A stretch of 64,000 bases of DNA from a virus, in the IMG/VR virus record IMGVR_UViG_3300034198_015644, positions 32,001-96,000 of that record. The stretch is one strand, 5' to 3'. How positions within the stretch are numbered: position 1 is the first letter of the stretch; each line of letters starts with the position of its first letter. This document shows positions 14,619 to 34,900 of the stretch, one piece after another. The position numbers and the translations under genes were made by a program. The notes beneath the pieces were generated by a model. That model saw only the letters and a program-made list of their open reading frames with translations. It was not told the origin of the DNA and did not search any database.

Positions 14619-17600
14619 ATGGCGTTCCCAATATTAAGAGATCCTGAAGTAATACATTTATTTGTAGATAAGTTCCCAACTTTATTGAGTGGTCCGTCTA
14701 GTGCAATTACAGAATTTTATAGTTTTTGTGTAAAAAATGGAGTAAATGAACTTTCATTATATGACACATTAAGTGTTTTACCAAGTTCAACAAACTCAGT
14801 TAGTAATTTTATTTATAGTGCAAAAACTTTTAATTACGTATGTGAAGTTGGCGGAACCGTAAATCCTTATGATCCTGCAACATTAGGATTAAAATATTTA
14901 AACTTAATTACTACCTACAATAATGGACAACCAAATCTATCAAGAAAATACGATAGGATAACTATTGAGAATGAATTTTGGAACTTAGAGACAAGTATTA
15001 ATCCATTAAAAAATACTGCAGGATTTACCATATCAACAATTGCGGGAAATACTGTGGCATCCATAGCAGGGGGAATACCCTCATCAATTTTTGTTGTGGG
15101 AAATATGGTTAAAGTTTTTGGTGAATATAGACAAGTCTTAGCAATTGGGGCGACAACAATAACTGTTGATAGAGGATTTACTAATACAGTAACAAATCAA
15201 ACTTTTGAAATTAGAGATAATAAAGTTTCGGGGGCAGAAACATATGCAATTGATTTTGAAACATATTTGTTGCGTTTAAAAAATATTAGAAATGTTGCAG
15301 TTGCAAATAATTTAAAAATAGATGCATATCTTTCAAGAAGAGTAACACAAGTACAATTTTTAAAATTAATTCCATTTATTGACAGAATTTTAATTGAGGC
15401 AGATTACGATCAAAATAATTATTTACTATATAACGACCCAACACAATTAAATAAAATACGAGATGTTTTAATTAGATGTAGTCAAAATAGAACAGGTACT
15501 GTCAATATCAATGTTGGTAACAATAATATGCAAGGTATTGGGACTGACTTTACCAATGAGTTGGGAGTTGGTACAAAGATTTACGTTAGTGGACAAGTTT
15601 TTACAATACAATCTATTGTAAGCTCAACGCAGGCAACTTTATTGGAAACTAACAATAGTAGTACAATTAATAATGCAACTTTTAAAACTTATACAGAATT
15701 TGCCCCAATATTCTATATCAACAAGACATTAAGAAAAACTTGGTTAACCACACCTGTTAGTACTAAAAGTTATGCTGATGTTTTTAAAATGTTTACACTT
15801 AGTGGTTATACAGTAGGAGGATCAGTACAATCAGGTAGTAACCCAATTTGTTATAATTTGGAAGACAACCCATCAATAACTGGTGCGACTAATTTGATTG
15901 GCATATCAATATTTGATAGAACTGAGGCACAATCTATAGACATAAAAGTTGCACAATCTTCTTCACCAAGATCAAGTTGTACCAATCCTTTGGCTAGATC
16001 TATTGGTGCTAACAATACTTATGCAATAACTTTTCAAGGAAATGATTGTACCTGTGATAATGCGACAAATGGATCAGTAACTGCGAATTTTAGTACAATA
16101 CAACCTACCCCATACAACTATACATTTACAAATGGTGGTAGAGTAATTGAGATTACAAATTTAACTACACCACCACCATATACGTTTAGTGGTCTAGGTT
16201 TAGGTACTTGGAACATATCAGTAAGAGATGGTAATAATAGTGTTTCAACAGGTAGTGTCACAATAAATGAATCATTTCAACCAACCATTACAGGTAATTA
16301 TATAAGTGCAGGTCAAGGCGGAATTACAGTATTCTATACGGGAGGTTATAACAACTACTATATTTCAAGAATAGATAACCCAACAAATATAAACAATCAA
16401 TGGGGACCTTTTATTTCATATCACAATGCAGGTAGTGATCCATTTTTTGATTCTAACATAACAGTTAATAATACAACAAAATCATATAATTCATCATCTA
16501 CTCCTGCGTATAATTTTGTACCAAATCAAAGTTATAGTTTTGTTATTGGAGATACAGATGCATGTATTAAAATTTTTACTGTAACAATACCTCAAGCGTC
16601 AACGGGACCTTCAGTAAATATTACTCAAACTACCAATCCATCTTGTGATGCAGCATCAAACGGTTCTATAACTATGGTTGCAGCAGGCACAGGACCTTAC
16701 GTATTTCATGTAACATATCCAAATGGAAATACAAGTAACATAAATAGTGTGAGTACTACACAAGTATTAAATAATTTATCGGCAGGAAATTACTCAGTAA
16801 CAGTAACAGATGCAAATAATGTTACATCTACCCCTGCGGTTACTACAACTTTAACTAATACATATAATTCAAATATAAATGCAACTAGTACATCACCTAA
16901 TCAAGTGTGTTTTCAATTAGTCGCAGGATCAACATATACTATAACATCAGGAGGGGGAACATTCCAATCATTTAATCAAACAGTAAGTGGACCTAACTTT
17001 ACCCCATGTTTTAATAATTTACCAGGAGGACAATATAACTTTAATGTTTTATCTTCTAATGGTTGTTCAGAAACAATTTATTTAACAGTTAATAGTGCAA
17101 CATTAACATTATCATTAAATCAATACGAAAATCCAAGTTGTACACAAGTTAATGATGGAATTATTAATGTATTTGCGACAAGTAATGGTAATGGACAATT
17201 TTCTTATTCCGCATCAAATGGTAGTGTAATTTATAGCAACAATAGTGGTAATTTTACTAATTTGAGTGCCGGTACTTGGACATTATCAGTTAGTCAAAAT
17301 GGAATTTTGGGGAATAATATTGTAGTGCAATTAAATAATTCATTTTATGTTAATGTGACTAGTACAGGTGAAACTGTATGTGTTAGTGCGAGTGGTGGTT
17401 CATTAGGTATTTATACTGTAGATATTAACGGTACGTTACACACCTATAACACCGCATCCACAATAAATTGTTATACTGGTCTTTGTTCGGGAAATGTTGT
17501 CAGAGTTGTTGATGGTGACATTATAAACACTTCAATATCAGGTTGTGTATACACCACAACAACACCTAAAGATTGTGCATTTAATTTTAACGTCACTGCT

Positions 17601-20600
17601 AATACAATTACTTGTGGCGACTACGGATCAATAATAGCTAGGGCGGATGGTGGAGTTACTCCATATATTTATACTGCCACAGGTAATGGTACGTACACGA
17701 ATACTACAGGTAATTTTAATGTTTTACCATCAGGTATATGGACAATAACAGTAGAGGATAACATTGGTAACTCAGGAACTACGACAGTTAATTTAGATAG
17801 TAAACTTAAATTTAGTGCCGACAGTAGCGCTCTTAGTGCAACATGTGTTACCATTATAGATGGTTTAGCACCTTACTATATTTTAATAAATCAAATATTA
17901 TATACTGCCTCTACACAAGGAACTTATTGTTTTGATTTAGAATGTGGTTATAATGGTATTGATGTATATGATAGTTGTACAGGAACTACTTGTGCAAATT
18001 ATTTATTTACTGCTCCGGGTGGAATACAAAGTTTTTTTCAAAATATATTTTGGACTAATTGTAGTGGAATGACACAAAGTGGAATTTTAAATTCAATTAG
18101 CCCTATCATAGGTAATACTTTTAGTACCTGTGCAATTTTTGGAACTCCTGTTACTACAAATTCTAAAATAGAAATAAGTCTAATAGGTTTTTGTCCACCC
18201 GGCACAAATCAAGATTGCGTGGTTGATAATAGTGTGATTGTGTATTATGATTGTCCGGGACCATTAAGTTTAGAACAAACTCAAGATAGTGTCAATCCTA
18301 GCTGTACTGATAGTAGTGATGGTGAGATATACTTTAGTGGTTTTGGTGGGGACTATCCCTATGTTAGTTATTCAGCAATAAATGGTAATACCATATATGT
18401 TAATGGTACAGGTACATTTTCAAATTTAAGTGCAGGTACTTGGACGATTTATGTTGAAGATAGTTCAAACACTATAACATCAACAACTGTAACATTAGTT
18501 TCAGATTTTATAGTTGATTTTACTATCACTAGTTTTACAGAAAACAGCGTGACCATTTGTGCTAATATACCAATCCAATATCAAACATTAGAATATGAAT
18601 TAACGTTTGAAAATCAAACGGCGATATTGAATGCATCTAATTCTTTTTGTAATACATTTACAGGGATAACAGGATGTAGTGTAGTTAATGTTAATTTATG
18701 TTCTTTAAGAAATTATAGAAGGCTTACTAATATTGGTGGTGGAGGTAGAAGTGTAATTAAAGGAAGTGATGGTCTTTTTTATGGGGTAACACAAATTGGT
18801 GGTTTATACAATTATGGGACTATATACAGATATAATGAAACCACTAAGGTTTATACTACATTACATAGTTTTAATGGGACTACAGATGGAAACACCCCGC
18901 AAGATATAATTGAAGTATCTAATGGAAAATTATACGGAATTTGTTTAGTCGGTGGTAATAGTGGTTATGGTACGTTGTTTAGTTGTACCACTTCAGGATC
19001 ATACGCAGTAATACATAATTTTGATGGGACGAACGGTGGAAATCCGGTTAGCAATTTAACTTTGGCTAGTAATGGTGTCATGTATGGAATGACACAATAT
19101 GATTCTACTTATGGATACGGCACTATATTTAGTTGTAGTACCATTGGAAATTTTGGGGTAGTTTATTCTTTCCAATACGTTTTTTCCATACCTTTTGATG
19201 GGTACAACCCAACAGGAAAATTAATCGAAGCATCTAATGGGTTACTTTATGGGGTCACACCACTTGGAGGTTCGAGTGACCAAGGAATTTTATTTAATTA
19301 TGATTATATAAATAATCAATATAACAATTTATTTTCTTTTGATTATGGGTCAGTCGCATATCCAAATGAAATAGTTGAAGGATTGGATAATAATTTATAT
19401 GTAATAGGTGATACATTTTCAAATAAAAGTATTTATAAATTAGATTTATCGGGAACACCAAAAGGAAATGTACATAATTTTTCATTAAGTGACGGATCAA
19501 ATGCAAATAAATTAATAAAAGGACTTAATGGTAATTTATGGGGATCAACTTTATATGGTGGTTTATATAATTTTGGTACAATATTTAGTTGTGATACTTT
19601 AGGTAATTTTGAAGTACTGTATAATTTTAAAAATTCTCTTCCAAATGACAATTTCTTATTGAATACTAACTCAACAATATTTTATGGGACAAGACAATCA
19701 AATATATTGTATAAAATAAATGTTAGTTTACCCGAATCTTGTTGTTTTGATACAACTACAAATTTAAATGATTTGTTAAAACCAAATATAATTTCTCTTT
19801 ATGGAGACTATGTTAATGGGGTGCCAAGTATTTGTACTACGATAGATATTAGTAGCTCAGTTAATGTTTGGTATACTGTAACTGTAAATGGAGAAGAAAA
19901 CATATATGATAGAAGTTTAGAACCTAATTGTTTTAGTGCGCTAACTGAGGGGTTAACAGATGTTTCTATATGTGAATATGTGGATTCATTTAACTATCTA
20001 GCAATACATTATTTTGACTCAACTAACAATACTTTTGGGACTACTCCTAATGGAGGTTTGATAGAGGCAAGTGACGGCAACTTTTATGGTATGACATTTA
20101 ACGGAGGTTCAAATGATTTTGGTGTAATTTATAGTTGTGATACTATAGGTAATTATGGTATAATATATAATTTTGGGTCTGTTTTATTTGATGGAAAATA
20201 TCCACTTGGATCTTTAATACAAGGATCAAACGGAACATTATATGGGATGACATCATCAGACAATATATTAAATTTATGTGGAGTAATTTTTAGTTGTACT
20301 ACAACAGGTAATTATGGGATAATACATAGATTTGATAATACAGTTACTAATGGCGTAACTAAAGGAAGAACACCTGAAGGTTCTTTATGCGAAGTTTCTG
20401 ATGGATTCTTATATGGGGTGACAAGATATGGAGGTTTTAATAATGGTGGGGTAATATTTAAAATTAACCCAACAACAGGACAATATTTTTCAATTTATGA
20501 ATTTGGACAAGCACCAAATGATCCATTAGAACCAATAGAAGGTGTAATAGAAGTTAACAATAAATTATATGGAATGTCTTACTTTGGAGGACAACATAAT

Positions 20601-23600
20601 TTTGGCACTATATATGAATTGGACTTAAACATAGGTGTACCTAATACTGTATTTAGTTTTGAAAATGTAACTGGTTCGGGAGATATTGGATTTTATCCTA
20701 ATGGAAAATTAACTTTAGGGTCAAACGGATTGTTATATGGACTAACAACTGGTGGAGGATTTTATGGAGTAGGGGCATTTTTTGAATTCGATCCAACTTA
20801 TCTAACCTATAGGACAATACATAGTTTTAGTGGCACCCCTATTGACGGTGAGACTGCGACAGGTACTTTATTTGAAGATGAAAATGGAGTATTTTATGGG
20901 TTAACAAAAGAAGGTGGACCTATAGGTCGAGGAACAATTTTTGCTTGTGATATATATGATAATTATAAAATTTTAAAAACTTTAAATAATTCAAACGGTA
21001 GATATCCTGAGAATACATATTTTATAAAGGCATCCGATAATAATTTATATTCTACAGTTAGTGGTGGATTACCTAATAATGGTGGTGGTATTATAAAATT
21101 AACAATTGAAACATTAACGGGTTGTTGTTATAGTGCAACTACAAATATACCACAGTGTTTAGACGGAGTGACTATTGACACATTATGGATAGATAATATG
21201 CCATATGTTAATGTATTAATTAATAGTCAAAATACTACACCTCCATATGAAGTTACGGTTGGGGGTATAACATATCCTTATTATGTTGGATCATTAACCG
21301 GAAATTGTTACCCAATAATCGGATGTGATCCAGTTATTGTAAATGTTTGTGCACCTGAGATTACTTCCCAACAATTAAGTGGATTTACAGTAGAACATAA
21401 ATTTAGTTTTTCAGATGCTTATGATGGTAAAAATCCATATGGTGATTTAACATTAAATTATAATGGAATATTTTATGGAATGACATCGCAGGGTGGTGTA
21501 AATGAGCCAGGATATTTCCCCACAGGATGCGGAACAATTTTTAGTTTTGATCCAATAACTAAGATTTATCAAAAAGTTTATGATTTAGACGCTGATAATG
21601 GAGATGGATTTTTTCCAAAAGGAACATTACAATGTGACCTAAATTATAATTTATATGGGGTTAATTATTACGATGCAGTTAGTGGTTATGGTACGTTGTT
21701 TAGTTGTACCACTTCAGGATCATACGCAGTAATACATAATTTTGACGATGTTAATGGATCAAATCCTGTTACATTACCTAGTAGAGAACCATTAACAGGA
21801 CGATTCCAAAGAGTCGGAACAACAATAAAAAGTGCAACCGGTGATGGAGTTTTATATAGTTTTGATAATGGTACACACGTGAATGATGATTTTAGCTCAA
21901 TAGGGTCTTTTGGTCGAGGCACTAATTCATATTTTAATGACCCATCTATATCTTATAATAAAGGAATAAATTCAAACGGACCCTTATTAGTTGATCAAGA
22001 GTTATCATTAATATATTTCGGATCAACTCAAGCATTTGTTTACGGCATGACAAAAGAAGGGGGAACAAACAATAATGGTGTTATTTTTGCTTATGACTTT
22101 TTTGTCTATGGTTTATACGATATTTATAATTTTACAGGCGGAGCGGACGGAGGAAAACCAACAGGAGGTTTAATTAAGTATAGTTATGGGTTATATAATA
22201 AAGTTTATGGAATGACTTCAGAAGGTGGTGCAGGTTTTGGTGTCATATTTGAGATGGATTTATCAATTTTTGGTTCACCTGTAAATACAATTTTACATAC
22301 ATTTGCGGGAGGAACTTCTGATGGATCTAGACCATATGGTTCATTATACGAATTTAATGGTCGACTTTATGGTATGACATATTATGGAGGAACGAATAAT
22401 GCCGGTGTAATATTCTCATTAGACCCAAGACTTCCTTATCCACACGACTATACAATCATTCATAGCTTTAATGGAAGTACGGGAGGATCAAATCCTGTAG
22501 GTTCATTGACAATGGGCCCTGATGGTAAATTATATGGTATGACATTGTATGGCGGTAATGGAGTAGGTGTAGGAGGTAAAGGTATAATATTTAGTATTGA
22601 TTTTAATTTAACTCAAAGAGCGGCATGTTGTTATCAAACAACCATAGACGTAAATGATCCTAACGATATAAATTTACCTCTTATTGAGGGAACTTGGTTT
22701 AATTCACAACCAACAATTTCTGTGAGCATTGACCCAAATAATTATTATGTCGCTCCTTATACTGTAACTATTGATGGAGTTACATATAACTATGACACAA
22801 ATAGTGCTAAAAATTATTTCCCACAATTAAGTTGTGGTACACATACAGTAGTCATTACACCAAATGCGGGAAACAATACACTTGACTTTTCGGGTTTAAA
22901 ATCGTTTAGTGGACCAACAATTGATCCGGGTTCATTATTTGGTAATCCAATTGAACCAATCACCAACGAATTTTATGCCTTATCTTATGCGGGTGGAGCA
23001 TTAAATTTTGGTACAATTTTTAAGATTGATTTGTTAGGTAATGTTGAGATACTTCATAATTTTTCAGGATCAACTTATGGTGATGGAAACCACCCAATAC
23101 AAGATTTAATTTTATCGTCAAATGGAAAAATGTACGGTACAACCTCGGAAGGCGGAATATATAATGCGGGTACAATATTTAGTTGTGATACTTTAGGTAA
23201 TTATGGTATAGTTTATAATTTTTCTGGTGGCACAAATGGAGGTGGACCGATTCAAAATTTAACAGAAGTTTCTAATGGTATTTTTTATGGATTAGTGTAT
23301 CAAACCGGTGCATTTGGTATGGGTATTATTTTTAGTTGTGATACAATAGGAAATTATAAATTGATTCATAGTTTTAGTGGGTCACCTTATGATGGGATGC
23401 AACCTTTAGAAAGTTTTTATAAACATTCAAATGGTATTTTATATGGTACTACATTTAATGGGGGTACTTATAATGCGGGAACAATTTTTAGTTGTGACAC
23501 TTTAGGTAATTATGGTATAATTCATAGTTTTAATAATACAGTGATTCCCAATAACGGATGCAACCCAAGATGTACGTTAATTGAGGGAGATAATGGTATT

Positions 23601-26600
23601 TTATATGGTACTACATCAAATGGTGGAAATATAGGTTCATATGGGACAATTTTTACTTGTAGTACATCAGGAAATTATGGAGTAATACATAAATTTACAG
23701 GTGTAGATGGTGACGGACCACAAGAAGGTCTTTTTAAAGGTCAAAGTAATATTTTTTATGGGACTACTTATGGTGGTGGGATTCATAATTTGGGTACAAT
23801 TTATAGTTGTGATACTTTAGGTAATCATGGGGTAATTTACAATTTTAATGGTTCAGGTTCAACCGGATCTTTACCGTATAATGGATTATATGTGGCAGAA
23901 AATGATATTTTATACGGTTTCACTCAGTACGGCGGAATTTATTCGGCGGGAAATTTTTATAGATTTAATCCATATAATTTTCTATATGGAGATTGTCCTT
24001 ATTCGGGTACTGTTAACATACCATGTTTTTATTTAGATGAATTAAATGTGGAAGTTCCATGTACAACAAACGATGGTCAAATATCAGTTCAGGCATTGGG
24101 AGGTAATCCTGATTACACATATACTTTGACATATACTAGTATAACAAATGATACATACAGTATAACACAATTTGGTACCACATTTCAACCAATAACGTTT
24201 ATCAATTTAAGTGCATTAACATGGGGATTAATTGTCACAGATTCTAGTGGACAAACGTTAAGTCAAATTTATGATTTTAATCCAATCGATAACCCATCTA
24301 TCACTACAGTTAATGGTGATACTATTTGTATTAGTTTAGATCAAGTGGGATTATCATTAACAGGTATTACATTAGATGGTAATATACTATATAGTGGGAA
24401 TATAGGTCTAACTAATTTTTGTTTTACTGCAGGTTGTGGTAACCATTTGGCCCAATTTTATACTACCAATGGATGTATGTACCCCATTCCCTTTTCTTTT
24501 GATTGCCCACCAAGTAATTTAGTCTTCACAAATTTAAGTCAGATAGATCCTTTTTGTTGTAACTCTTCTGCAAAAATTAATGTGGCAGTAACAGGCGGTA
24601 CATTGCCATATACGTATACTATATATAATATACCAACTACCGCGACTTATACTAATACTACGGGTAATTTTACAAACATATACCCACCTACAGGAACTTG
24701 GCAAGTAATTGCAACGGATGCAAATGGTAGCACGATAAGTAGTAATATTTTTACATTAAATTCAATATTTTTTGCTGATATTACATTTATTAATAATATC
24801 GCAGTTATTAATTTTAGTGGATCTACTGGAATAGATGTACTAATAAATGGAGTTTCACAAACTTTAGGTTATATTGCAACTAAAGTAAGTGGGGGAACTT
24901 TAAGTTATCCAATACCTTGTGGAACTAATATTAATGTTGAAGTTATTGGTAGAATAGTTATAAATCCTATAACTAAAACTTATGAATATTGTCCTATAAG
25001 TGCAAGTACATTTTATCCTTGTCCTTTATTTTGTAGTAATATAATTAGTCAACCAAGATGTCCAGGACAAAACGCTAATTCTGTTACAGTCTTAGTAACA
25101 GGCGGAACACCAAACTACAATATAACATTAACTAATGGTACGTTAATTTATACTGCTAACACATCACTAAATAGTTATATTTTTAACGATAACCCACCTT
25201 TAGTCACTTTAATACAAGATGATTGGACAATAACTGTTATAGATTCTGATGGTACAGTTTGTATACAAGATATAACTATACAATCTAGTTTTGATGCAAC
25301 AATAACAGGTACGTCAACGGGGGCATGTTTTACGGTAGTTGGGGGAAATCCACCATATACACTTTATATTGATGGCGTGATTTATACACCATTAATAAAT
25401 CAAATAAGTAATGATATTGTTTATTGCGTACCACTAAATTGCGGTAATCATCAATTAGAAATAAGAGAAACAGGAGTACCACCAGCGGCATGTTCAATAG
25501 TTTTAGATTACTTTAGTTCCTGTCAATTGACTTGTAGTACAATAACTACAGATCCCGGTTGTAATGATAATTGTAGTGGATCAGTTACGATAAGTGTAAC
25601 TGGTGGAACACCACCATACAACTATAGTTTAATTAGAACCTCACCATCGTTTTATCAAACGACATATACGGGTCCACAAACTACTTGGACTTTCTATGAT
25701 CTATGCGAAGGGACTTATGATATTACAGTATCGGCGTTAACTAATGGTGCGTTTTGTACATCTAATTTGAATCTAGCATCAATATATGATGTAGTAGTTA
25801 GTGGATATGCAGTTTCAACTAACTGTCTATATGGTGTAATGTGTATTGACATTACGGGAGGAACACCACCTTATGATGTATATATTGATGGAATACTAAG
25901 AGCAACTGCAATTACTCAAACACATAGTTGTTATAGTGCAACTTGTGGTGTAAATCATACTTATCAGGTAATTGATTCTGCACCTCCTTGTAATATACCA
26001 TTAAATCAGGCATTACTTAAAAATACAAGTTTTACAGGGACTAGTGATTGGATATTGACTAATGATTATACTGGTAGTACTATAATATCGGGAGGTAGTG
26101 CAATAGTATCTTCTACGACATATAATACTTTACAAGTATTTAGATTTTTACAAGATTATATTTTCCCGTTCCAAAAACCAATATCAATAAAATATAATGT
26201 CAGTGTTAGTACAGGGACAATTCAAAATTACAATTATTTACCACAATTTAGGATACAAAGTCCTTTTGGTAGTACTAATATGGGTGGAATTGCACCTAAT
26301 TCGACATATTCTACAACAAAACAGATAGTAAGTACGGTAGAACCTGTAATTTTCTCAGGTTTTGGTATTAATTTTTATCAATCGTTCCTACCTAATAATA
26401 AAACTGAGGTAAAAGACATGCAATTGACATTATTGTCTTATACTGTAGATTGTAGATGTTCGGCTAGCGGAACTACATATGTACCTTGCAACCCACCATT
26501 AACATTAAATGTTGTTTCTTATACAGAACCAAATTGTTTCAGTGCTTGTAATGGAACTATCATCGTTTCTGCAACCGGAGGAGTACTCCCATATAGTTAC

Positions 26601-26924
26601 TCAGCAACTAATGGAACGTCAATTTACATAAGCCCTAACGGGGTATTTAACGATCTTTGTGAAGATACTTGGGACTTGTCGGTTAGTGATAGTTGTAATA
26701 CAGTTGTTACAAACGCAGGATTCTTCTTACCAAACTCATTCCATGTAACAGTGGATACGTATCCTACAGAGTTTTGTGTGGGAATAACAGGAGGAACACC
26801 ACCTTACCATGTTTTCATAGATAATGTAGAAATTGATACCATTAGTCAAAGTCCGGTTAATATTTGTTATAGCGCAAGTTGTGGGGTAACCACAATTATA
26901 CGTGTGGTGGATAGCTCTACTTAA
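14619..26924 (+). CDS. Giant tail-fibre/adhesin-like protein: N-terminal GH-like TIM barrel, SprB-like Ig units, four TIGR03803 (GloVer) beta-propellers, CBM-like insert
   Basis: 4101 aa. 'TIENEFWN' domain; many 'P.C....G.I.V...GG.PPY.Y......F..L.AG.W...V.D' units; 'G.LYG.T..GG....GTIF......HSF.G..G..P' repeats at about 18.7-24.0 kb. Confidence 0.75.
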   Translation: MAFPILRDPEVIHLFVDKFPTLLSGPSSAITEFYSFCVKNGVNELSLYDTLSVLPSSTNSVSNFIYSAKTFNYVCEVGGTVNPYDPATLGLKYLNLITTYNNGQPNLSRKYDRITIENEFWNLETSINPLKNTAGFTISTIAGNTVASIAGGIPSSIFVVGNMVKVFGEYRQVLAIGATTITVDRGFTNTVTNQTFEIRDNKVSGAETYAIDFETYLLRLKNIRNVAVANNLKIDAYLSRRVTQVQFLKLIPFIDRILIEADYDQNNYLLYNDPTQLNKIRDVLIRCSQNRTGTVNINVGNNNMQGIGTDFTNELGVGTKIYVSGQVFTIQSIVSSTQATLLETNNSSTINNATFKTYTEFAPIFYINKTLRKTWLTTPVSTKSYADVFKMFTLSGYTVGGSVQSGSNPICYNLEDNPSITGATNLIGISIFDRTEAQSIDIKVAQSSSPRSSCTNPLARSIGANNTYAITFQGNDCTCDNATNGSVTANFSTIQPTPYNYTFTNGGRVIEITNLTTPPPYTFSGLGLGTWNISVRDGNNSVSTGSVTINESFQPTITGNYISAGQGGITVFYTGGYNNYYISRIDNPTNINNQWGPFISYHNAGSDPFFDSNITVNNTTKSYNSSSTPAYNFVPNQSYSFVIGDTDACIKIFTVTIPQASTGPSVNITQTTNPSCDAASNGSITMVAAGTGPYVFHVTYPNGNTSNINSVSTTQVLNNLSAGNYSVTVTDANNVTSTPAVTTTLTNTYNSNINATSTSPNQVCFQLVAGSTYTITSGGGTFQSFNQTVSGPNFTPCFNNLPGGQYNFNVLSSNGCSETIYLTVNSATLTLSLNQYENPSCTQVNDGIINVFATSNGNGQFSYSASNGSVIYSNNSGNFTNLSAGTWTLSVSQNGILGNNIVVQLNNSFYVNVTSTGETVCVSASGGSLGIYTVDINGTLHTYNTASTINCYTGLCSGNVVRVVDGDIINTSISGCVYTTTTPKDCAFNFNVTANTITCGDYGSIIARADGGVTPYIYTATGNGTYTNTTGNFNVLPSGIWTITVEDNIGNSGTTTVNLDSKLKFSADSSALSATCVTIIDGLAPYYILINQILYTASTQGTYCFDLECGYNGIDVYDSCTGTTCANYLFTAPGGIQSFFQNIFWTNCSGMTQSGILNSISPIIGNTFSTCAIFGTPVTTNSKIEISLIGFCPPGTNQDCVVDNSVIVYYDCPGPLSLEQTQDSVNPSCTDSSDGEIYFSGFGGDYPYVSYSAINGNTIYVNGTGTFSNLSAGTWTIYVEDSSNTITSTTVTLVSDFIVDFTITSFTENSVTICANIPIQYQTLEYELTFENQTAILNASNSFCNTFTGITGCSVVNVNLCSLRNYRRLTNIGGGGRSVIKGSDGLFYGVTQIGGLYNYGTIYRYNETTKVYTTLHSFNGTTDGNTPQDIIEVSNGKLYGICLVGGNSGYGTLFSCTTSGSYAVIHNFDGTNGGNPVSNLTLASNGVMYGMTQYDSTYGYGTIFSCSTIGNFGVVYSFQYVFSIPFDGYNPTGKLIEASNGLLYGVTPLGGSSDQGILFNYDYINNQYNNLFSFDYGSVAYPNEIVEGLDNNLYVIGDTFSNKSIYKLDLSGTPKGNVHNFSLSDGSNANKLIKGLNGNLWGSTLYGGLYNFGTIFSCDTLGNFEVLYNFKNSLPNDNFLLNTNSTIFYGTRQSNILYKINVSLPESCCFDTTTNLNDLLKPNIISLYGDYVNGVPSICTTIDISSSVNVWYTVTVNGEENIYDRSLEPNCFSALTEGLTDVSICEYVDSFNYLAIHYFDSTNNTFGTTPNGGLIEASDGNFYGMTFNGGSNDFGVIYSCDTIGNYGIIYNFGSVLFDGKYPLGSLIQGSNGTLYGMTSSDNILNLCGVIFSCTTTGNYGIIHRFDNTVTNGVTKGRTPEGSLCEVSDGFLYGVTRYGGFNNGGVIFKINPTTGQYFSIYEFGQAPNDPLEPIEGVIEVNNKLYGMSYFGGQHNFGTIYELDLNIGVPNTVFSFENVTGSGDIGFYPNGKLTLGSNGLLYGLTTGGGFYGVGAFFEFDPTYLTYRTIHSFSGTPIDGETATGTLFEDENGVFYGLTKEGGPIGRGTIFACDIYDNYKILKTLNNSNGRYPENTYFIKASDNNLYSTVSGGLPNNGGGIIKLTIETLTGCCYSATTNIPQCLDGVTIDTLWIDNMPYVNVLINSQNTTPPYEVTVGGITYPYYVGSLTGNCYPIIGCDPVIVNVCAPEITSQQLSGFTVEHKFSFSDAYDGKNPYGDLTLNYNGIFYGMTSQGGVNEPGYFPTGCGTIFSFDPITKIYQKVYDLDADNGDGFFPKGTLQCDLNYNLYGVNYYDAVSGYGTLFSCTTSGSYAVIHNFDDVNGSNPVTLPSREPLTGRFQRVGTTIKSATGDGVLYSFDNGTHVNDDFSSIGSFGRGTNSYFNDPSISYNKGINSNGPLLVDQELSLIYFGSTQAFVYGMTKEGGTNNNGVIFAYDFFVYGLYDIYNFTGGADGGKPTGGLIKYSYGLYNKVYGMTSEGGAGFGVIFEMDLSIFGSPVNTILHTFAGGTSDGSRPYGSLYEFNGRLYGMTYYGGTNNAGVIFSLDPRLPYPHDYTIIHSFNGSTGGSNPVGSLTMGPDGKLYGMTLYGGNGVGVGGKGIIFSIDFNLTQRAACCYQTTIDVNDPNDINLPLIEGTWFNSQPTISVSIDPNNYYVAPYTVTIDGVTYNYDTNSAKNYFPQLSCGTHTVVITPNAGNNTLDFSGLKSFSGPTIDPGSLFGNPIEPITNEFYALSYAGGALNFGTIFKIDLLGNVEILHNFSGSTYGDGNHPIQDLILSSNGKMYGTTSEGGIYNAGTIFSCDTLGNYGIVYNFSGGTNGGGPIQNLTEVSNGIFYGLVYQTGAFGMGIIFSCDTIGNYKLIHSFSGSPYDGMQPLESFYKHSNGILYGTTFNGGTYNAGTIFSCDTLGNYGIIHSFNNTVIPNNGCNPRCTLIEGDNGILYGTTSNGGNIGSYGTIFTCSTSGNYGVIHKFTGVDGDGPQEGLFKGQSNIFYGTTYGGGIHNLGTIYSCDTLGNHGVIYNFNGSGSTGSLPYNGLYVAENDILYGFTQYGGIYSAGNFYRFNPYNFLYGDCPYSGTVNIPCFYLDELNVEVPCTTNDGQISVQALGGNPDYTYTLTYTSITNDTYSITQFGTTFQPITFINLSALTWGLIVTDSSGQTLSQIYDFNPIDNPSITTVNGDTICISLDQVGLSLTGITLDGNILYSGNIGLTNFCFTAGCGNHLAQFYTTNGCMYPIPFSFDCPPSNLVFTNLSQIDPFCCNSSAKINVAVTGGTLPYTYTIYNIPTTATYTNTTGNFTNIYPPTGTWQVIATDANGSTISSNIFTLNSIFFADITFINNIAVINFSGSTGIDVLINGVSQTLGYIATKVSGGTLSYPIPCGTNINVEVIGRIVINPITKTYEYCPISASTFYPCPLFCSNIISQPRCPGQNANSVTVLVTGGTPNYNITLTNGTLIYTANTSLNSYIFNDNPPLVTLIQDDWTITVIDSDGTVCIQDITIQSSFDATITGTSTGACFTVVGGNPPYTLYIDGVIYTPLINQISNDIVYCVPLNCGNHQLEIRETGVPPAACSIVLDYFSSCQLTCSTITTDPGCNDNCSGSVTISVTGGTPPYNYSLIRTSPSFYQTTYTGPQTTWTFYDLCEGTYDITVSALTNGAFCTSNLNLASIYDVVVSGYAVSTNCLYGVMCIDITGGTPPYDVYIDGILRATAITQTHSCYSATCGVNHTYQVIDSAPPCNIPLNQALLKNTSFTGTSDWILTNDYTGSTIISGGSAIVSSTTYNTLQVFRFLQDYIFPFQKPISIKYNVSVSTGTIQNYNYLPQFRIQSPFGSTNMGGIAPNSTYSTTKQIVSTVEPVIFSGFGINFYQSFLPNNKTEVKDMQLTLLSYTVDCRCSASGTTYVPCNPPLTLNVVSYTEPNCFSACNGTIIVSATGGVLPYSYSATNGTSIYISPNGVFNDLCEDTWDLSVSDSCNTVVTNAGFFLPNSFHVTVDTYPTEFCVGITGGTPPYHVFIDNVEIDTISQSPVNICYSASCGVTTIIRVVDSST
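18959..19024 (+). repeat. 66-bp perfect direct repeat, copy 1 (copy 2 at 21680-21745)
   Basis: TAGTGGTTATGGTACGTTGTTTAGTTGTACCACTTCAGGATCATACGCAGTAATACATAATTTTGA occurs twice. Confidence 0.9.
21680..21745 (+). repeat. 66-bp perfect direct repeat, copy 2
   Basis: Identical to 18959-19024; encodes SGYGTLFSCTTSGSYAVIHNFD. Confidence 0.9.
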
Positions 26925-26964
26925 AAAAGTAAAATATAAAAGATTAAAACTATGTACGTTTTTT

Positions 26965-27015
26965 ATAAAATCCTTAATTTTAAATAATTAAGGATTTTAT
27001 CCTTTTATTTTTATT
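26965..27015 (+). terminator. Probable intrinsic terminator after the 4101-aa gene
   Basis: 15-bp perfect inverted repeat ATAAAATCCTTAATT / AATTAAGGATTTTAT with a 6-nt loop (26965-27000), followed by a T-rich tract. Confidence 0.65.
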
Positions 27016-27036
27016 AAAAAACTTATAAAAAATCAG

Positions 27037-27059
27037 AAAACAAAATAATTATTTTAAAA
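27037..27059 (+). promoter_or_regulatory. 23-bp duplicated upstream element (copy 2)
   Basis: Identical to 14588-14610; ends 7 nt before the ATG at 27067. Confidence 0.6.
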
Positions 27060-27066
27060 ACAAAAG

Positions 27067-28947
27067 ATGCCTATTCCAGCACCATATAATCCTAAAAATT
27101 TACATTTATGGGTTGATAATGTTACTAGTTTGTTAACTAACAGTACCAATTTTTTCCAATTAATTGATAATAACTGTATTAACACATTCACTATGTATCA
27201 AATACCTACGATAACTTCGCAGGTACAATCTTTGGGAAATTTTATATGTGAGGCAAAAACAAATCATGGAGTCTGTAGTGTGGCAGGAATTATAAACCCA
27301 TACGATTGGACTCCTCCTCCGGCCGGTACAAGAAACGTTCAATCTATTGTCAATTACAATAATAACCCAATTACACAGGCAAATTCATGTCGTAGAATTG
27401 ATTATCTCACAATTGAGAGTGAGTTTTGGAATATAGACGATCCCGCAATAAATCCTGTAGTTTCTAATGGTTGTACCATAAATATAGCTGCTAACTCATC
27501 AACAGGTACAGTTTCAGGTTGTTTAGGAGGAGTAACCGCAGGTATGATAATAAAAGTTTCTGTTGGGGCGACTTTTGTTTATAGACAAATAATTGGTATT
27601 AGTGGTAATATTGTAACATTTGATAGAGTTTTTGATCCAATTAACGCGTACTTAGCTGCACCATTTACAGTAATTAACAACCAAACCTTCTATGGAATTG
27701 ATTTTGAAACACTATTATATAGGATAAAATATAATATACGACCTATGGCAATTGCAAATAACTTATTGCCATTAGAAATATATGTTTCAAGAGCTTTAAC
27801 CAGCGATCAATTTGAAAGACTAATACCACACGTTGATAGATTATTAATTGAGGTAGATTATAATCAATTAAGTTATCCTAGATACAACGATAACGATGTA
27901 ACTAATCCCTCATGGTCAACTAACACTATTAAAAACGCTCTAAGTCTTTGTAGCGTCATTAGAACGGGTACAATTTCAATTGCACAAAATAGTAATATTG
28001 TAACAGGTAGTGGAACTTTATTTACAAGAGATTTGGGTGAACAATCACAAATAATTGTAAATGGAAACCAAATTTATACAATTGCCACAATAATTTCAGA
28101 TACTCAGGCAACAATTGTTGGTACTTCCCCAATCAATATAACTGCAGGTAGCACATACGCATCTTATTTTGATTACATGCCAATTTTTTATACATTACCA
28201 GCTGGGGCATTTGGTACTCCTCTTAGGAGACAATGGATGTTAAACCCTTCACCAAAAAGTTATGCGGATGTATATAGATTCCATTCTCAAAACGCCTATA
28301 CTGCAGGTGGATCAATACAGGTAGGAAATACCCCTATTGCATTTAACAACGAAACAGATCCATATATTGTTGATTCAGTTTCATTAGTTGGTTTATCGTT
28401 ATTTGTTTGGTCTTCTGTTAGTAATTTATCTCCTGTTGCACCACCAGATTATCCTTGTCCACCTTGTAGTGGAGAAACCATAATAGGGTGCGAGGTTACC
28501 GCAATCACAACCTCAAATTGTTTAATCGCAACATATACTAATCCAGCTTGTGATGGTGTTTGTGATGGCACTATAAGTGCGTCTACAACATATGGAATTG
28601 CGCCATTTACTTATTATATAACAGGAATAACTAATTCAATAACTTATGTAAGTAGTACAGGTTTTTTCAGCGGATTATGTGAAGACACTTATATTTTATG
28701 TGTTACAGATTCTGCATCAAATACCGAATGTTATTATCAAAATATAGAATTAGTAAATACATTTTATGCATCTATAAATTCATTTTTAAATGGTTTTTGT
28801 GTTACAATAAGTGGAGGTACAGGAATTTATTATGTATACAAGGATAATCAAGTTTTGCCTTGGGATTATAATAATACTACAAATTGTTATAGTGCGGATT
28901 GTTCCACACTTTCAGTAATAACAGTAAGAGATACTAGCACATTATAA
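27067..28947 (+). CDS. Short paralogue of the 4101-aa fibre protein: GH-like domain plus one SprB-like unit pair
   Basis: 626 aa. The N-terminal ~460 aa align by eye with the 4101-aa N-terminus (HLWVD/HLFVD, NPYD, TIESEFWN, IDFET, DRLLIE.DY.Q, KSYADV). The C-terminus matches its last unit. Confidence 0.75.
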   Translation: MPIPAPYNPKNLHLWVDNVTSLLTNSTNFFQLIDNNCINTFTMYQIPTITSQVQSLGNFICEAKTNHGVCSVAGIINPYDWTPPPAGTRNVQSIVNYNNNPITQANSCRRIDYLTIESEFWNIDDPAINPVVSNGCTINIAANSSTGTVSGCLGGVTAGMIIKVSVGATFVYRQIIGISGNIVTFDRVFDPINAYLAAPFTVINNQTFYGIDFETLLYRIKYNIRPMAIANNLLPLEIYVSRALTSDQFERLIPHVDRLLIEVDYNQLSYPRYNDNDVTNPSWSTNTIKNALSLCSVIRTGTISIAQNSNIVTGSGTLFTRDLGEQSQIIVNGNQIYTIATIISDTQATIVGTSPINITAGSTYASYFDYMPIFYTLPAGAFGTPLRRQWMLNPSPKSYADVYRFHSQNAYTAGGSIQVGNTPIAFNNETDPYIVDSVSLVGLSLFVWSSVSNLSPVAPPDYPCPPCSGETIIGCEVTAITTSNCLIATYTNPACDGVCDGTISASTTYGIAPFTYYITGITNSITYVSSTGFFSGLCEDTYILCVTDSASNTECYYQNIELVNTFYASINSFLNGFCVTISGGTGIYYVYKDNQVLPWDYNNTTNCYSADCSTLSVITVRDTSTL

Positions 28948-28948
28948 A

Positions 28949-31900
28949 ATGCCATATATTTTTAACGACAAATATTATAAAATAATACATAAAATAGGAC
29001 TTAATAATCTTAGTCAACAATCAAATAGTTCATTAATTATACCTAACTCCTTTCTAAATAATTTATTTTATGCAACAACGGAGGAAACGAGCTTAGTAGG
29101 TTCCAATTTTCGAGGTACTATATATAGAGCTGATGCGGATGGTAACGTTTTTGATGTTTTGTATCTTTTTTCGGGATTAACTCAACCACTCACACTATTT
29201 AAAGACGGTGATGGAGATCGACCAATCGGATCATTAATCGAAGCACCAAATGGGTTGTTGTATGGAACAACTGATGGTGGCGGGGTTTGGACTAATAGTA
29301 GTCAAACTCCTATTTATGGAAATGGTATATTATTTAGCTATGACCCTTTGGGTAATACATACAATATTTTATATAGATTTTCGGGTATAACAAATTTTGA
29401 TCCGATACCTTCTTTAACGGATGGTGGTAGGCCACAAGCAAATTTAAAAGTAATTTCAGGTACAACAATATTTGGTACAACTTGTGCCGGAGGTTATAAC
29501 CCTATAGGTGGGGGAACTGAATTAGGGTCTATTTGGAAATTTGATACGTCAACTAATACATATTCAATTTTACACCATATTACTGCATCTACGGAAGGAA
29601 GAAAAGTAACTGAACTTATTTTGGCTAATGATGATAATTTATATTTTACAACCAAATTTGATGGTGCGGGTTTTCCATGGCCTGCTGGAGGATCATTAGT
29701 TAAATTAGATCTAAATGGGAATAGTACAGTAATACATCAGTTTACCAATACTCCTGATGGGGCAGATCCTTCCGCATCATTATTACAGGCATCAAATAAT
29801 TTAATTTATGGTACAACTACTCAAGGAGGAACAGGAGGATATGGGACAATATATACGTGTGATACTTCAGGTAATTACGGAATCATATATAATTTTTTAG
29901 GTGGAATTAATGGACAAAATCCATCAGGATCTTTATATGAATATAGCCCTGGATTATTTTATGGTATGGCATATGGTGGGGGTAATTTTAATTTAGGTGT
30001 TATTTATAGTTCAGATACTTTTGGAAATGTAGGAGTAATTCACCATTTTGGATCTTTTTATCTAGATGGAGAATCTAATTATCGACAAATTACTAATCTT
30101 AGTACAGGAGTTAATGGATCTCTTTTTGGTGTTACAAACGGTGGAGGAATAGGAAGCGGGACAATTTATACTTGGATTGATACTTGTAGTTTTATTTATT
30201 CCAGAAGCGGAACAACATTAAATTATTTCGATCCAAATCATATTGAATATTCGTATTATTTTGAAACTATAAGTCCATCAAATATAAGAGTAGCATTTGC
30301 ATGTAGAAATAATAATCTTTTTTGGAGAAAAATTACCACATCATTTAATGTTATAGATGAATTTACGTTAGGAAATTTTTTAGACGAAGCGCCCGTCATA
30401 AATAGAAATATATTTTTACCTCCAGCAGCATTTAAAGGAATGGCATATGCCGGACCAAATCAACTCTTTGTAAACAATAGAACTTCACAAAGAGTTGAAT
30501 TATATGATATAACAAATACAAGTGCAACATTAATAACTCCAGTATTTTCACTACCTATAACACATCAGTTTAGTATAGGAAATTATACAGATTCTTTGTA
30601 TGTAAATAACACTCAAACAGTATTTTATATTAATTTTAATAATACATTTACATCGTTTGATTCTAGTGGACAAATTTTAAATGACGGGGCACCACCTTTA
30701 GGTAATGTAGTTAGTATGTATGTACATAATGGTGATATATACACTACTACTGACAATAATTTAATTTATCTTACCGAACCTTCCGCACCAAGTGGATGGA
30801 CTTTTACCTTGATAGGTAATACACCATATAACGAACCAATGTATGCAATCGCACAAGATAATATTTCTGAATGTCTATTATCAATCCCAACGGTAGATTA
30901 TTCTTGTGTAACTTTATTTGTACGTTATGCGGATGATTTTTATATTTATGAACTTGACCCCAATAATCCCGATATTTTAAATTATAGATTTAAGCCTTTT
31001 TATGCGACAACTCAATTAGCGACAAACGGAATTTATCTTTGGGCACATAGAAGTACAGTTCCTTCATCATTTATTGATGTGTATGATTTGGCCGCATCGT
31101 ATGCTACTCTTAATGGGGTATTAGTACCAAGTATGCAAATTACTGTTCCAATTAACACTAGACTTGGTGGAATTTTTTATATATCACCTAACCAATTATA
31201 TGTAGTTAATGAAACTTTAAATACGGTAGAATTGTGGGACATATCAACACCACCTACACCTATAATAACAACAGTATTTAATATACCCGCACCATATTCG
31301 CCAGTAATACTTAACTCTTCCTATAATTCTTTATATGTTGATTTAAATAATAATATATTTTATTTGACAACTTTTACTGATTTTGTTTCATTTAGTGTAA
31401 CACCTGGCAACCCTAATCCAACTGTTTTAAATACCTCATCAAGTACAATTCTCCCAAATGGGCATCAAATAATTAACATGTATTTGGATAATGGACAAAT
31501 ATATGTTACAACTCAACAAGGGTATATATATTTGGCACAACCGGCGGTGGGAGGAGGATGGACTTTTATACAACAAACATTTATACCTAGACCAACAAGA
31601 TTTGGTGTGACACAAACTTATGCAGAAGATTGTGTAGGTACTGTTCCACCCACACCTTTAACAGGTTGTGTTATCACAGGATTAACAGTAACAGGTTGTT
31701 CTGATTTTGTTATAGTAAGTGGGGATAGTCAAGACATAACATGTTTACATGATGGTAGTGTATCAATTCAAATATCAGGAGGATGCCCAAATTATACATA
31801 TACATTATACCACCCAAATATAAGTACACAAGTAAATCAAGTAGTAACACCTAACAAAAATTGGACTTTTACAGGATTAACTGATCCGGGAAATTACTAT

Positions 31901-34900
31901 GTATCTATAAGTGGATGTAGTGGGGCGACGTTAGTGACATTAAGTCCATTTACAATTTTAGATAACAATACTTTTTATAATAACATCTTCCAATTAAACA
32001 ATGAAGAGTTTTGTGTTACTGTAAGTGGTGGTACATTACCTTATATAATTACAATTGATGGAGTTTCTCAAACGTATCAAAGTGCAGACACATATTGTTT
32101 TAGTGCAAGTTGTTTAACACCACCATCACCATCACTAATTAGATGTAGATTAAGTAATAATAATGGAAGAATAAATAGAGCTTGGGATGGAACACCTTTA
32201 AGTCCATGTCAACATACTTTTACAATTTTAGATTTAACCGTAAATGGAGTCCAATATGGACCCGGTACACCACTAACAGTTACCGCACCTTCAGGATTGA
32301 TGGCGGGAATAGGTACTGATGGTAATAGTTACGTCACCAATATTACTGATTGGATAAATAGTTATGTGCCAGCAGGATTTACATTTTGGGATGACATGAA
32401 AGTTGTCGATAGACCTGTAGGATCAACATTTAACTTAACCATAAGTTACTTCAACGCATGTGCAGGAACAACTCAACAATATACATATAACGACTCTACG
32501 GGTTGGACAATACCGGGACCTCAAACATATTCTACATATGATTGTGTACCTTTAACAATTGGAGGTGGATCACAAACAGGAAGAACAGTTACTATTAGTG
32601 ATGCGGAAGGATGTAGCGCAAGCACTGTTATAAATTATACTTGTGAAACGCCAACAATTAGTATAAGTGGCACAAATCTTTGTTGTAATAATGACGGAAG
32701 TGTAAGTATAACAGTCAATAATGGAGTACCTGCTTTTAGTGTTACCGGCACTAATGCGACTACGGGTGAAGAAATAATTGTAACTTCACCCACAACTCCA
32801 ATAAACATAGATCATTTAACTCCGGGTAATTGGACGTTTGTTGTACAAGATTCTTACGGTAATTTAATAACCACCAATAATACAATTAATTTAATAAGAT
32901 CTTATAATGTTGATTTTTTCAGTGCAAGCACTTCCCCAACAGGGACTACATTTTGTTTTAGTGGAGAATCTTGTTTAGATTATTTGAATGTAATTATTGA
33001 AGCTACCGGTCAAATAACCTCGATCAATCTAAACCCGACACCGGATGCTTGGTTTGGTACTGATGGAATTATTGATACAAATACTTTATATTGCTTTGAC
33101 ATACCAATAGAGTATTGTGGAAACGATGTAATAAATATATTATTTTTTAATGGACTAAATACTAACATAAATGTTCTATCAGGATCATTTACTAACCCAA
33201 CCTGTCAGGCGCTATTTGGATATGTAGGGGCACAAGAAGGTACTTGGGTTAATGGGTATCCTGCTTATTGGTTTACTCTTAATAATGGAATTGATGTTGT
33301 AGTTTATTTTGATTTAACATTAAATCTTTGGGTTTGGAAAAATAGAAATAGTGGTACTATTTGTTCATCTTCACCTGATTTAATAAACTGGACATCAATA
33401 AATACTAGTCCAAATTGTCAGTGTGTTGATAGTTTTACTAGTTCTATAGTTATTGCTGTCGATTCTTGTGGTTACATATACGAATCTATAAGTTTACCAT
33501 GTCCGACACTTACATTAAGTGGAACATCAGTAAATCCTACATGTATTCAAAATTGTAGCGGAACAATAACATTGACATCATCAGGAGGTCAATCACCATT
33601 TACTTTTCAATTAACAGACTCCAATGGAAATACATTATTAAATTCCATTGGACAACCAACAATTGCAACAAATATAACTACTAATAGTTATACATTTACT
33701 AATCTTTGTTCGGGTACTTATTATACATTAATTACTGATAGCGCTTTCCCAATTCCAGCTACGGCAAATACAACACCAATAGTTTTAATAAATACATTTA
33801 TCGCTAGTGCAAATGTTTTACCTATAACAATAAATGGCACTGGAGGTACAATTTGTTTTACGGTTACAGGAGGTAGTGGAAATTATAATATTGACATACA
33901 AGATACCAATTATACTTATCCGCCAGTAAATGATACTATAGTGGACGGTGAAACTTGTTTTGATTTGCCATTTGGGTGTTATGATTGGTCAATTATAGAT
34001 CCTTCCACATTATGTCAATACACAGGAAATACGTGTATACCTGAGACACCATTTGGTTGCGGAGATTATACATATACTGACCCAACCTGCACCAATGACG
34101 GCACATTAACAATCAATGTTAGTGGAGGAACGGGTCCATATCAATTTGATTTATACCTTAATGGAATTTTCAATCAAACAGGTACTAATTCTGTTGAAAC
34201 ATTTACATTTCAAAATTTAGTTGCGGGAACTTATAACGTTTTAGTTACAGATTTAGGTAGTGGGACAGTTTTAGATTGTGTTACAGTAACATTAGTAAAT
34301 ACGTTTAGTGTTCAATTTATAAGTGGAAGTACTTGTGAAAATCCAGGATATTATTGTGTCTCATTTTCAGGAGGAAATCCACCATATATTATAGAGTTTG
34401 ATCAGACTATACAATATGTTGAATATATTGCAGGTACATACTGTTACCAAGCACCTTGTGGAACTTATGAATTAACGGTAAGTGATAGTGCAATTATTGG
34501 AAATTGTTATCAAGTCCAAGTGTACACTAAAGGATTGGGTGGATTTATTATAACCACAGATATAAATGGAAATGAAATTGCAAATACTGTACCAATTTCA
34601 TTAAGTCCACAAACATTTTATTTTTGTTCTTTTAGTGCGCCTTATTATTCGGTATCAGGACCACCTTATAGTCCATATGTACCTCCATCACCATATTATC
34701 TTAATATTTCTACATCAGGAGATTGTTCTAGTACGAATTGTGGCGGATCAACAATAGGTGGATGTAGTGATTCACAAACAATCACAATATCTTGTGGAGT
34801 TGATTTAAGTGCAACTACCGTTGGTAACCCTTGTGGTCAAAATGGTCAAGGATCTATAACTATATTTAATATTGGTGGATCACCTAATTTCCAATATTCA

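Follow-up and report, generated by a model that had tools for sequence, protein, structure and literature searches.

Here we describe a giant fibre gene, p1, in a 64,000-nucleotide (nt) stretch of viral DNA (IMG/VR record IMGVR_UViG_3300034198_015644, positions 32,001 to 96,000), referred to below as the window. According to the list of open reading frames (ORFs), p1 is the first of three successive fibre genes on the + strand, followed by p2 and p3. The best explanation for the p1 product is a giant protein of the tail-fibre or adhesin type, encoded by a large phage. Its shaft is probably a row of sandwich domains in which whole folded domains are nested in one particular hairpin of the repeat unit. 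All six large inserts of p1 occupy the same position within this unit, related proteins differ in what they carry at that position, and the cysteine (Cys) residues on its two sides covary. Nesting is well supported for one of these sockets and is supported by comparative evidence for the others.

The proposed shaft would be a chain of immunoglobulin (Ig)/fibronectin type III (FN3)-like β-sandwich units of two alternating kinds, A and B. The hairpin of the B unit between its last core strand (F) and a Cys-flanked closing strand (G) would tolerate insertions of whole domains. The chain would exit the sandwich after F, fold a passenger with adjacent ends and re-enter as G to complete the original sandwich. 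Because the chain re-enters as G, the shaft would remain continuous and the passengers would project sideways. The passengers of p1 would be four GloVer repeat domains, one jelly roll resembling a carbohydrate-binding module (CBM) and one Cys-rich module. Where F ends in an extra Cys and G opens with a doubled one, these residues would form a disulfide staple once the particle is outside the cell. From one related phage to another, cargo would be acquired, dropped and swapped at the sockets.

From residue 476 onward, p1 consists of two alternating unit types. The A unit comprises ~75-85 amino acids (aa), has a SprB-type start ('C..(D/N)G.I.V...GG..PY.Y') and ends with 'G.W...V.D' and its last strand. 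The B unit has a core of ~60 aa ('F.V.V...C....GG.PPY.V.IDG....CY...CG....V.D'), followed by a loop and a short strand that is mostly bounded by Cys on both sides (C-x9-11-C). In p1, profile hidden Markov models (HMMs) built on these units recognize 10 units of type A and 11 of type B, and another two divergent B units were found by eye. Predicted models show the stalk units as seven-strand FN3/Ig-like β-sandwiches that can be superposed on solved FN3 domains. The loops of the empty B units in p1 measure 1, 1, 8, 1, 13 and 6 aa. Three empty units thus have one-residue loops ('TTN-G-CM', 'SSN-G-CS' and 'DTD-A-CI'), and two strands so tightly joined force an F-G hairpin.

All six large inserts lie behind the last strand of a B core ('V.D' or 'V.V.C') and ahead of a short Cys-flanked closing strand (Table 1), the end of the former and the start of the latter being used as insert limits. 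A preliminary description of this DNA had placed passenger domains inside the repeat unit, between the core strand and the closing Cys strand, and each of the six is found there, in the range it had given. It had located the Cys-rich domain correctly and underestimated its size (~65 instead of 80 aa); it was likewise right that the loops of empty units are short, although they do not keep to the 3-15 aa it had proposed. The same position is used throughout the family. Across 15 family proteins, at least 60 aa separate 39 of the 80 B units from the next unit, and every stretch of at least 60 aa after a recognized unit follows a B core if missed B units are counted. Long gaps behind A units correspond to B units missed by the HMMs, save two of another kind in the A-only arrays of p3. 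The Cys-flanked strand always directly precedes the next unit, A or B alike, and in the family proteins a closing strand was never seen behind an A unit, whichever unit comes next.

Table 1. Fibre genes of the window and the sockets, inserts and related elements of their products (positions as in the window).
Feature	Position	Strand	Description
p1	14619-26924	+	single ORF, 4,101 aa; N-terminal ~440-aa domain, then stalk of alternating A/B sandwich units
B3, empty reference unit	17340-17576	+	core, 8-aa loop, closing strand CVYTTTTPKDC
B4 core	17802-17975	+	ends 'IDVYDS'; HMM match aa 1062-1119
Insert 1	17976-18215	+	80-aa Cys-rich module, 5 Cys
B4 closing strand	18216-18254	+	CVVDNSVIVYYDC; pLDDT ~33 in model 2, placement unreliable
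B5 core	18504-18701	+	ends 'VVNVNLC'
Insert 2	18702-19739	+	GloVer repeat domain 1, 346 aa; TIGR03803 matches
B5 closing strand	19740-19775	+	CCFDTTTNL...
B6 core	19776-19973	+	ends 'DVSIC'
Insert 3	19974-21122	+	GloVer repeat domain 2, 383 aa, 7 repeat matches
B6 closing strand	21123-21158	+	CCYSATTNIPQC
B7 core	21165-21350	+	ends 'VIVNVC'
Insert 4	21351-22625	+	GloVer repeat domain 3, 425 aa; orthologous insert in P0002
B7 closing strand	22626-22661	+	CCYQTTIDV...
B8 core	22686-22862	+	ends 'HTVVITP', no terminal Cys
Insert 5	22863-23993	+	GloVer repeat domain 4, 377 aa, 7 repeat matches
B8 closing strand	23994-24026	+	CPYSGTVNIPC, single Cys
Empty B9, B10, B11 and intervening A units	24285-25523	+	loops of 1, 13, 6 aa
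B12 core	25785-25979	+	ends 'TYQVIDS'; strand = residues 224-232 of model 1
Insert 6	25980-26450	+	157-aa jelly roll, CBM-like
B12 closing strand	26451-26489	+	CRCSASGTTYVPC; strand = residues 393-401 of model 1
B13 terminal B core	26733-26921	+	p1 ends 'VVDSST', no closing strand
p2	27067-28947	+	626 aa
p2 terminal B core	28756-28944	+	ends 'VRDTSTL' ('VITVRDTSTL') 2-3 residues after strand, no closing strand
p3	28949-43438	+	4,829 aa; start codon 1 nt past p2 stop
p3 N-terminal GloVer domain	29066-30178	+	p3 opens with GloVer
p3 closing-type strand	31667-31699	+	CVITGLTVTGC (aa 907-917), then A unit; no B core upstream in p3

Three of the GloVer inserts are bracketed by additional Cys residues, as had been noted before: 'VNVNLC...CCFDT', 'DVSIC...CCYSA' and 'VNVC...CCYQT'. 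The fourth lacks the extra Cys ('HTVVITP...CPYSG'). Among 69 HMM-found units, a Cys at the end of strand F and a 'CC' opening the closing strand occur together in 7, the F-strand Cys alone in 1, the 'CC' alone in 0 and neither in 61 (Fisher p 7e-9, not corrected for shared ancestry). Nine further concordant Cys pairs were found by eye in homologue units that the HMM missed. At orthologous sockets both sides are switched jointly, with 'VSIC..CC' in p1 vs. 'YTVF..CL' in P0003 and 'VNVC..CC' in p1 vs. 'VVVT..CE' in P0004 (homologues introduced below). The paired extra Cys residues therefore covary across the loop base and most likely form a disulfide that staples it; in a phage particle such disulfides would need to form after release from the cell. 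Of the extra disulfides postulated earlier, the Cys covariation thus stands, and the bond itself is a prediction. Because inserts occur behind B cores only, closing strands never follow A units, some hairpins turn over a single residue and the flanking Cys residues covary, we infer that the two ends of an insert meet at the loop base.

Two AlphaFold2 models bear on the topology. Model 1 extends from B11 through the B12 socket and beyond, and model 2 covers p1 residues 905-1375. Internal-fragment alignments against whole giant homologues were often pulled onto paralogous units, and a window-only paralogue alignment was poor; both were excluded from folding. Model 1 has a mean predicted local distance difference test score (pLDDT) of 81.5, and its units B11 and A9 align to tandem sandwich chains over residues 1-168. 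Two-domain FN3-type chains (e.g., 4kty_A, 2gee_A, 6pok_A, 4yfe_B and 7zcb_C) align over 156-163 residues of this model, starting at residues 75-81 and ending at 401-404. The best of these matches is to two β-barrels of factor XIII (4kty_A; root-mean-square deviation 3.6, 163 residues aligned, 81-403). With 88 residues in the A unit, 65 in the B12 core and 13 in the closing strand, such an aligned length is what one would expect of a second sandwich made up of core and closing strand and excluding the 157-residue jelly roll. A four-domain Fn7B89 chain aligns 309 residues over the range 1-486, so the shaft continues past the jelly roll in this model. According to DSSP, the core strand (224-232) nearly abuts the first strand of the jelly roll (237-244), and the last jelly-roll strand (374-389) nearly abuts the closing strand (393-401). 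On the model, the jelly-roll socket B12 thus shows a nested topology, and among the sockets it is only here that a nested, discontinuous domain is seen, in a predicted structure.

Model 2 is based on an alignment of 6 sequences and has a pLDDT of 63. The empty unit B3 together with its closing strand forms a single sandwich, with 1ulv_A aligning 75 residues over the range 1-80 and another match covering 4-79. Three-domain matches to this model that end at residues 306-308 were discarded as support because residues 215-310 are too uncertain. The preliminary description had envisaged a continuous stalk with side-branching domains. Prediction of unit plus insert yields one discontinuous sandwich at B12 instead of half-unit domains in series, in agreement with that proposal, whereas the Cys-module socket is modelled with too low a confidence (pLDDT 30-47) to speak for or against it. 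A Foldseek search of model 1 against the PDB returned only long sandwich arrays (complement C3/C4/C5, GhpA and titin); these matches came without ranges and are hence silent on topology.

A search of 5.8 billion proteins identified seven giant phage-like homologues with 23-49% identity (P0002-P0005 and P0007-P0009). Ranked behind these are the nearest bacterial relatives, many SprB-type surface proteins of Bacteroidota sorted via a type IX secretion system (T9SS). A full HMMER scan added P0087, P0089, P0093, P0096, P0097 and P0109. Related DNA loci were found neither in viral contigs (protein and alignment queries) nor in metagenome contigs or deposited phages (tblastn), and the homologues could therefore be used as whole proteins only. 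Occupancy differs cleanly among them at B3, B4, B5 and B12. The B5 socket holds 346 aa in p1 and about 370-390 aa in P0003 and P0004, and is empty, with 5 aa between 'C' and 'CC', in P0002 ('NLSST') and in P0005 and P0007 ('NNLLN'/'DNSST'). At B4, four proteins (p1 and P0002-P0004) have the Cys module (76-80 aa), for which P0005 and P0007 have 5 aa. Six proteins have an empty B3 socket, and P0008 and P0009 have a GloVer domain in it. The jelly roll of B12 (157-195 aa) is found in six proteins, with a 92-aa Cys-rich module in its place in P0005 and 3 aa in P0007.

The p3-like protein P0087 (5,577 aa) contributes a further fold. Two von Willebrand factor type A (vWA)-like domains of this protein are each flanked by a 'V.D' and a C-x9-C strand, and the precomputed Pfam list of P0087 includes vWA (PF00092). 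Besides these two sockets, P0087 has three with jelly rolls. P0087 and the p1-like P0005 probably stem from one related phage. Sequence comparison thus suggests that the socket accepts at least four folds and that gain or loss leaves the flanks undisturbed. The differences in occupancy fit cassette gain and loss, which had been proposed at the outset: homologues hold the same sockets empty or with other folds. For the GloVer domains, nesting is suggested by homology, the empty 5-aa loops in P0002, P0005 and P0007 and the Cys covariation.

An arrangement in series would place the same elements differently. The B core would be complete at 'V.D', the passenger would follow as a separate domain, and the Cys-flanked strand would extend the next unit at its N-terminus or act as a linker, such that passengers would be links of the shaft and not side branches. 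In line with this, the terminal B cores of p1, p2 and 11 relatives lack a closing strand and are modelled at pLDDT 73-89, and in p3 and P0087 a closing-type strand immediately precedes an A unit while the chain lacks a B core upstream of it. However, matches to the following A unit begin past the closing strand in both models (~78-83 and ~307-313), which argues against assigning the closing strand to that A unit as its first, and the two-domain matches skip the jelly roll and end on the closing strand. Moreover, closing strands stand behind B cores only, irrespective of which unit is next. The one-residue F-G turns of empty units and the Cys covariation across the insert also speak for a hairpin, and we consider an arrangement in series improbable.

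The closing strand could also be part of neither sandwich and instead act as a disulfide-tied clamp across the unit junction, similar to the GhpA stem, with inserts in an inter-domain linker. In most units the strand is indeed bounded by two Cys (C-x9-11-C), and the cryo-electron microscopy (cryo-EM) study of GhpA describes numerous disulfides within the molecule that link adjacent Ig-like domains (10.1101/2024.01.29.577165). A read-out by ranges and aligned lengths cannot separate an edge strand from a tightly packed clamp. Yet DSSP assigns a β-strand of 6-9 residues (72-79 and 393-401 in model 1, 73-78 in model 2), and single-domain matches to an empty unit include the strand (75 of 80 residues aligned). 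Hence, a clamp appears even less probable to us than domains in series.

The preferred reading, with passengers nested in the F-G hairpin, has to be set against several points that weigh on the other side. A confident model exists for only one occupied socket, B12, and the alignment behind it includes a homologue with an empty B12 socket, which biases the prediction toward an insertion. How strands pair was deduced indirectly, from where the aligned stretches begin and end and from their lengths, and not from model coordinates. In model 2, the Cys module and its closing strand fall in the low-confidence range given above, and residues 215-310 are too uncertain to be read. The terminal B core is modelled well (pLDDT 73-89) without a closing strand, so that the core may not strictly need it. 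The GloVer sockets differ from the modelled ones in that the next unit is B, not A. The jelly roll matches no CBM sequence family (Pfam, E up to 1), its sole sub-threshold match being to PATR, and ligand binding by the passengers is putative. The position of inserts is not invariable either. The first B unit of p3 (31964-32644, aa 1006-1232) seems to have a ~157-aa insert ahead of its last core strand: the profile matches up to 'YCFSASC', and 'RTVTISDAEG' and 'CSASTVINYTC' follow after the insert. The fixed hairpin of the preliminary description therefore holds for the p1 inserts and apparently not for this p3 unit. In an upstream ORF (2085-6722, 1,545 aa), an A-type SprB unit is apparently split between 'GSFYVTNLNPTSF' and 'FYNALITDSS' (4974-5654, aa ~964-1190). 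The intervening segment of ~150 aa starts with 'NGDFSNGFSYWT' and is jelly-roll-like, which may represent nesting in another loop of another protein.

As to the cargo, p1 matches the NCBIfam family TIGR03803 (GloVer) with 691.7 bits (cut-off 44) in 22 stretches, and GloVer domains 1-4 contain 5, 7, 6 and 7 matches, respectively. Each insert would comprise about seven repeats of 48 aa, suggesting that the GloVer inserts are β-propellers. A sequence search of the PDB found no relative of the GloVer domain or of the C-terminal fragment of p1. The nearest named Atlas clusters of GloVer domain 2 are SBBP and Tachylectin propellers, which gives a weak lead, and no mention of TIGR03803 or GloVer repeats was found in the literature. 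Two GloVer repeats in different inserts, one in domain 1 (18951-19022) and one in domain 3 (21672-21743), share ~59 identical nt, both encode GYGTLFSCTTSGSYAVIHNF and are 79% identical over 124 nt, which suggests gene conversion between blades of different inserts. The jelly roll of insert 6 (model 1 residues 243-385) on its own superposes on CBMs and has the CBM jelly-roll fold. It shares with them the fold alone, and its sugar binding is putative. The Cys-rich module of insert 1 has no Pfam match and resembles no recognized family. We infer that the passengers are multivalent ligand binders for host recognition.

The gene ends coincide with the same loop, as had been proposed: p1 and p2 stop directly after the last strand of a B core, p1 with 'IIRVVDSST' 2-3 residues behind it. 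In 13 of 14 family proteins, namely p1, p2 and 11 of 12 relatives, a terminal-unit profile matches at the very C-terminus, with strand F followed by 0-3 residues. In these proteins the sequence presents a sandwich without its last strand, i.e., the form expected of a donor-strand acceptor. The sole exception is P0004, in which the terminal B core is followed by a Cys-rich stretch of 287 aa (aa 3867-4153) without a closing-type strand. P0087 starts like p3, with a GloVer domain, then 'DCIITGVTVTGC' and then an A unit. Chaperone-usher pilins have an Ig-like fold without its last strand and are joined by donor-strand complementation. The terminal sandwiches of p1 and p2 similarly break off ahead of a closing strand, and in p3 a strand of the closing type stands without a core. 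Tentatively, and with more doubt than confidence, one may imagine that p1 and p2 leave their terminal B cores open on purpose and that p3 completes them in trans with its closing-type strands, which would chain the three products by strand complementation. Candidate donor strands would be p3 aa 907-917 and possibly 'CSFIYSRSGTT' (aa 412-424). Unlike in pilins, the strand would come from the interior of the 4,829-aa p3, after one to three cargo domains. A fused form was not present among 226 proteins. If this idea were true, the phage fibre would be assembled like a pilus, with p3 cargo inside an inter-protein 'loop', and the fibre joint would be the hairpin that elsewhere carries cargo.

Domains nested in sandwich loops are known from other systems. 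In the integrin β-subunit, the βI (vWA-like) domain is inserted in the hybrid sandwich, and in the tip pilins RrgA and GBS104 a vWA domain is inserted in an Ig-like domain. Gram-positive tip pilins are described as containing vWA (PMC5536039). As proposed for p1, a binding domain with adjacent ends sits in a sandwich loop of these proteins, and P0087 likewise uses vWA. However, nesting is known once per protein in integrins and tip pilins, at one specific position, while p1 reuses one hairpin in many tandem units, and the p1 family has at least four unrelated cargo folds with presence/absence among close relatives. Lactococcal siphophages have 'evolved' Dit, major tail and neck-passage proteins with inserted CBMs that add host-binding capacity (PMC6669499). 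These are, like p1, phage structural proteins with an internal CBM insertion, but their host fold is another one (such as the galectin-like arm of Dit), each has one CBM, the socket is not repeated and neither propellers nor vWA domains are among the cargo.

In its shaft, p1 is comparable to the giant SprB/GhpA-type surface proteins of Bacteroidota, which share with p1 the SprB repeats and long rods of Cys-rich Ig-like units. With model 1 as query, Foldseek ranks GhpA stem fragments (PDB 9flp, 9fly, 9flw and 9flv) among its best matches. GhpA is reported to have 52 Ig-like repeats with many disulfides and a stem solved by cryo-EM (10.1101/2024.01.29.577165). Unlike GhpA, p1 alternates two unit types and has whole domains in one hairpin; the accessible part of the GhpA study mentions no such insertions (10.1101/2024.01.29.577165). 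Unlike SprB and GhpA, p1 is encoded by a phage, within a tail module, and Pfam scans of p1 and p3 found no T9SS C-terminal sorting domain (PF18962/PF13585), a domain present in most bacterial homologues of p1. p1 matches Pfam SprB (PF13573) in 5 stretches with 72.7 bits (cut-off 28), and p3 reaches 173 bits. Single nestings being known already, what is new is the repeated use of one hairpin per shaft, cargo of up to seven-repeat domains, the covarying staple and the clean polymorphism in occupancy.

If whole domains are nested as proposed, p1 would be a natural loop-display scaffold, a rigid shaft in which one hairpin of every second unit takes from 80 to more than 400 residues and at least four unrelated folds. 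Large Bacteroidota phages would have a route to reshuffle host-recognition modules while fibre assembly is undisturbed. For protein engineers, this would be a tested insertion site that brings along its own disulfide staple and by which a rod could display folded domains. GloVer repeat domains, which are without a described function, would find themselves in a setting suggestive of surface binding. With their open ends, the terminal units pose the testable question of how the three fibre proteins join.

The source record is 106 kb long with a CheckV completeness of 32%, which suggests a large phage, and the G+C content is ~30%. The phage host is probably a member of the Bacteroidota. The genes upstream of p1 have matches to a baseplate wedge subunit, to Hoc-like Ig domains and to families of tail fibres. 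The N-terminal ~440-aa domains of p1 (14619-15950) and p2 (27067-28400) are mutually homologous and have no Pfam family match. Their 'ENEFWN' motif recurs in an internal domain of p3 (aa ~2110-2400; about 35276-36148). The 142-nt gap between p1 and p2 (26925-27066) contains an inverted repeat rich in A+T (AAATCCTTAATT...AATTAAGGATTT) and, behind it, a run of T; this looks like a terminator between both fibre genes.

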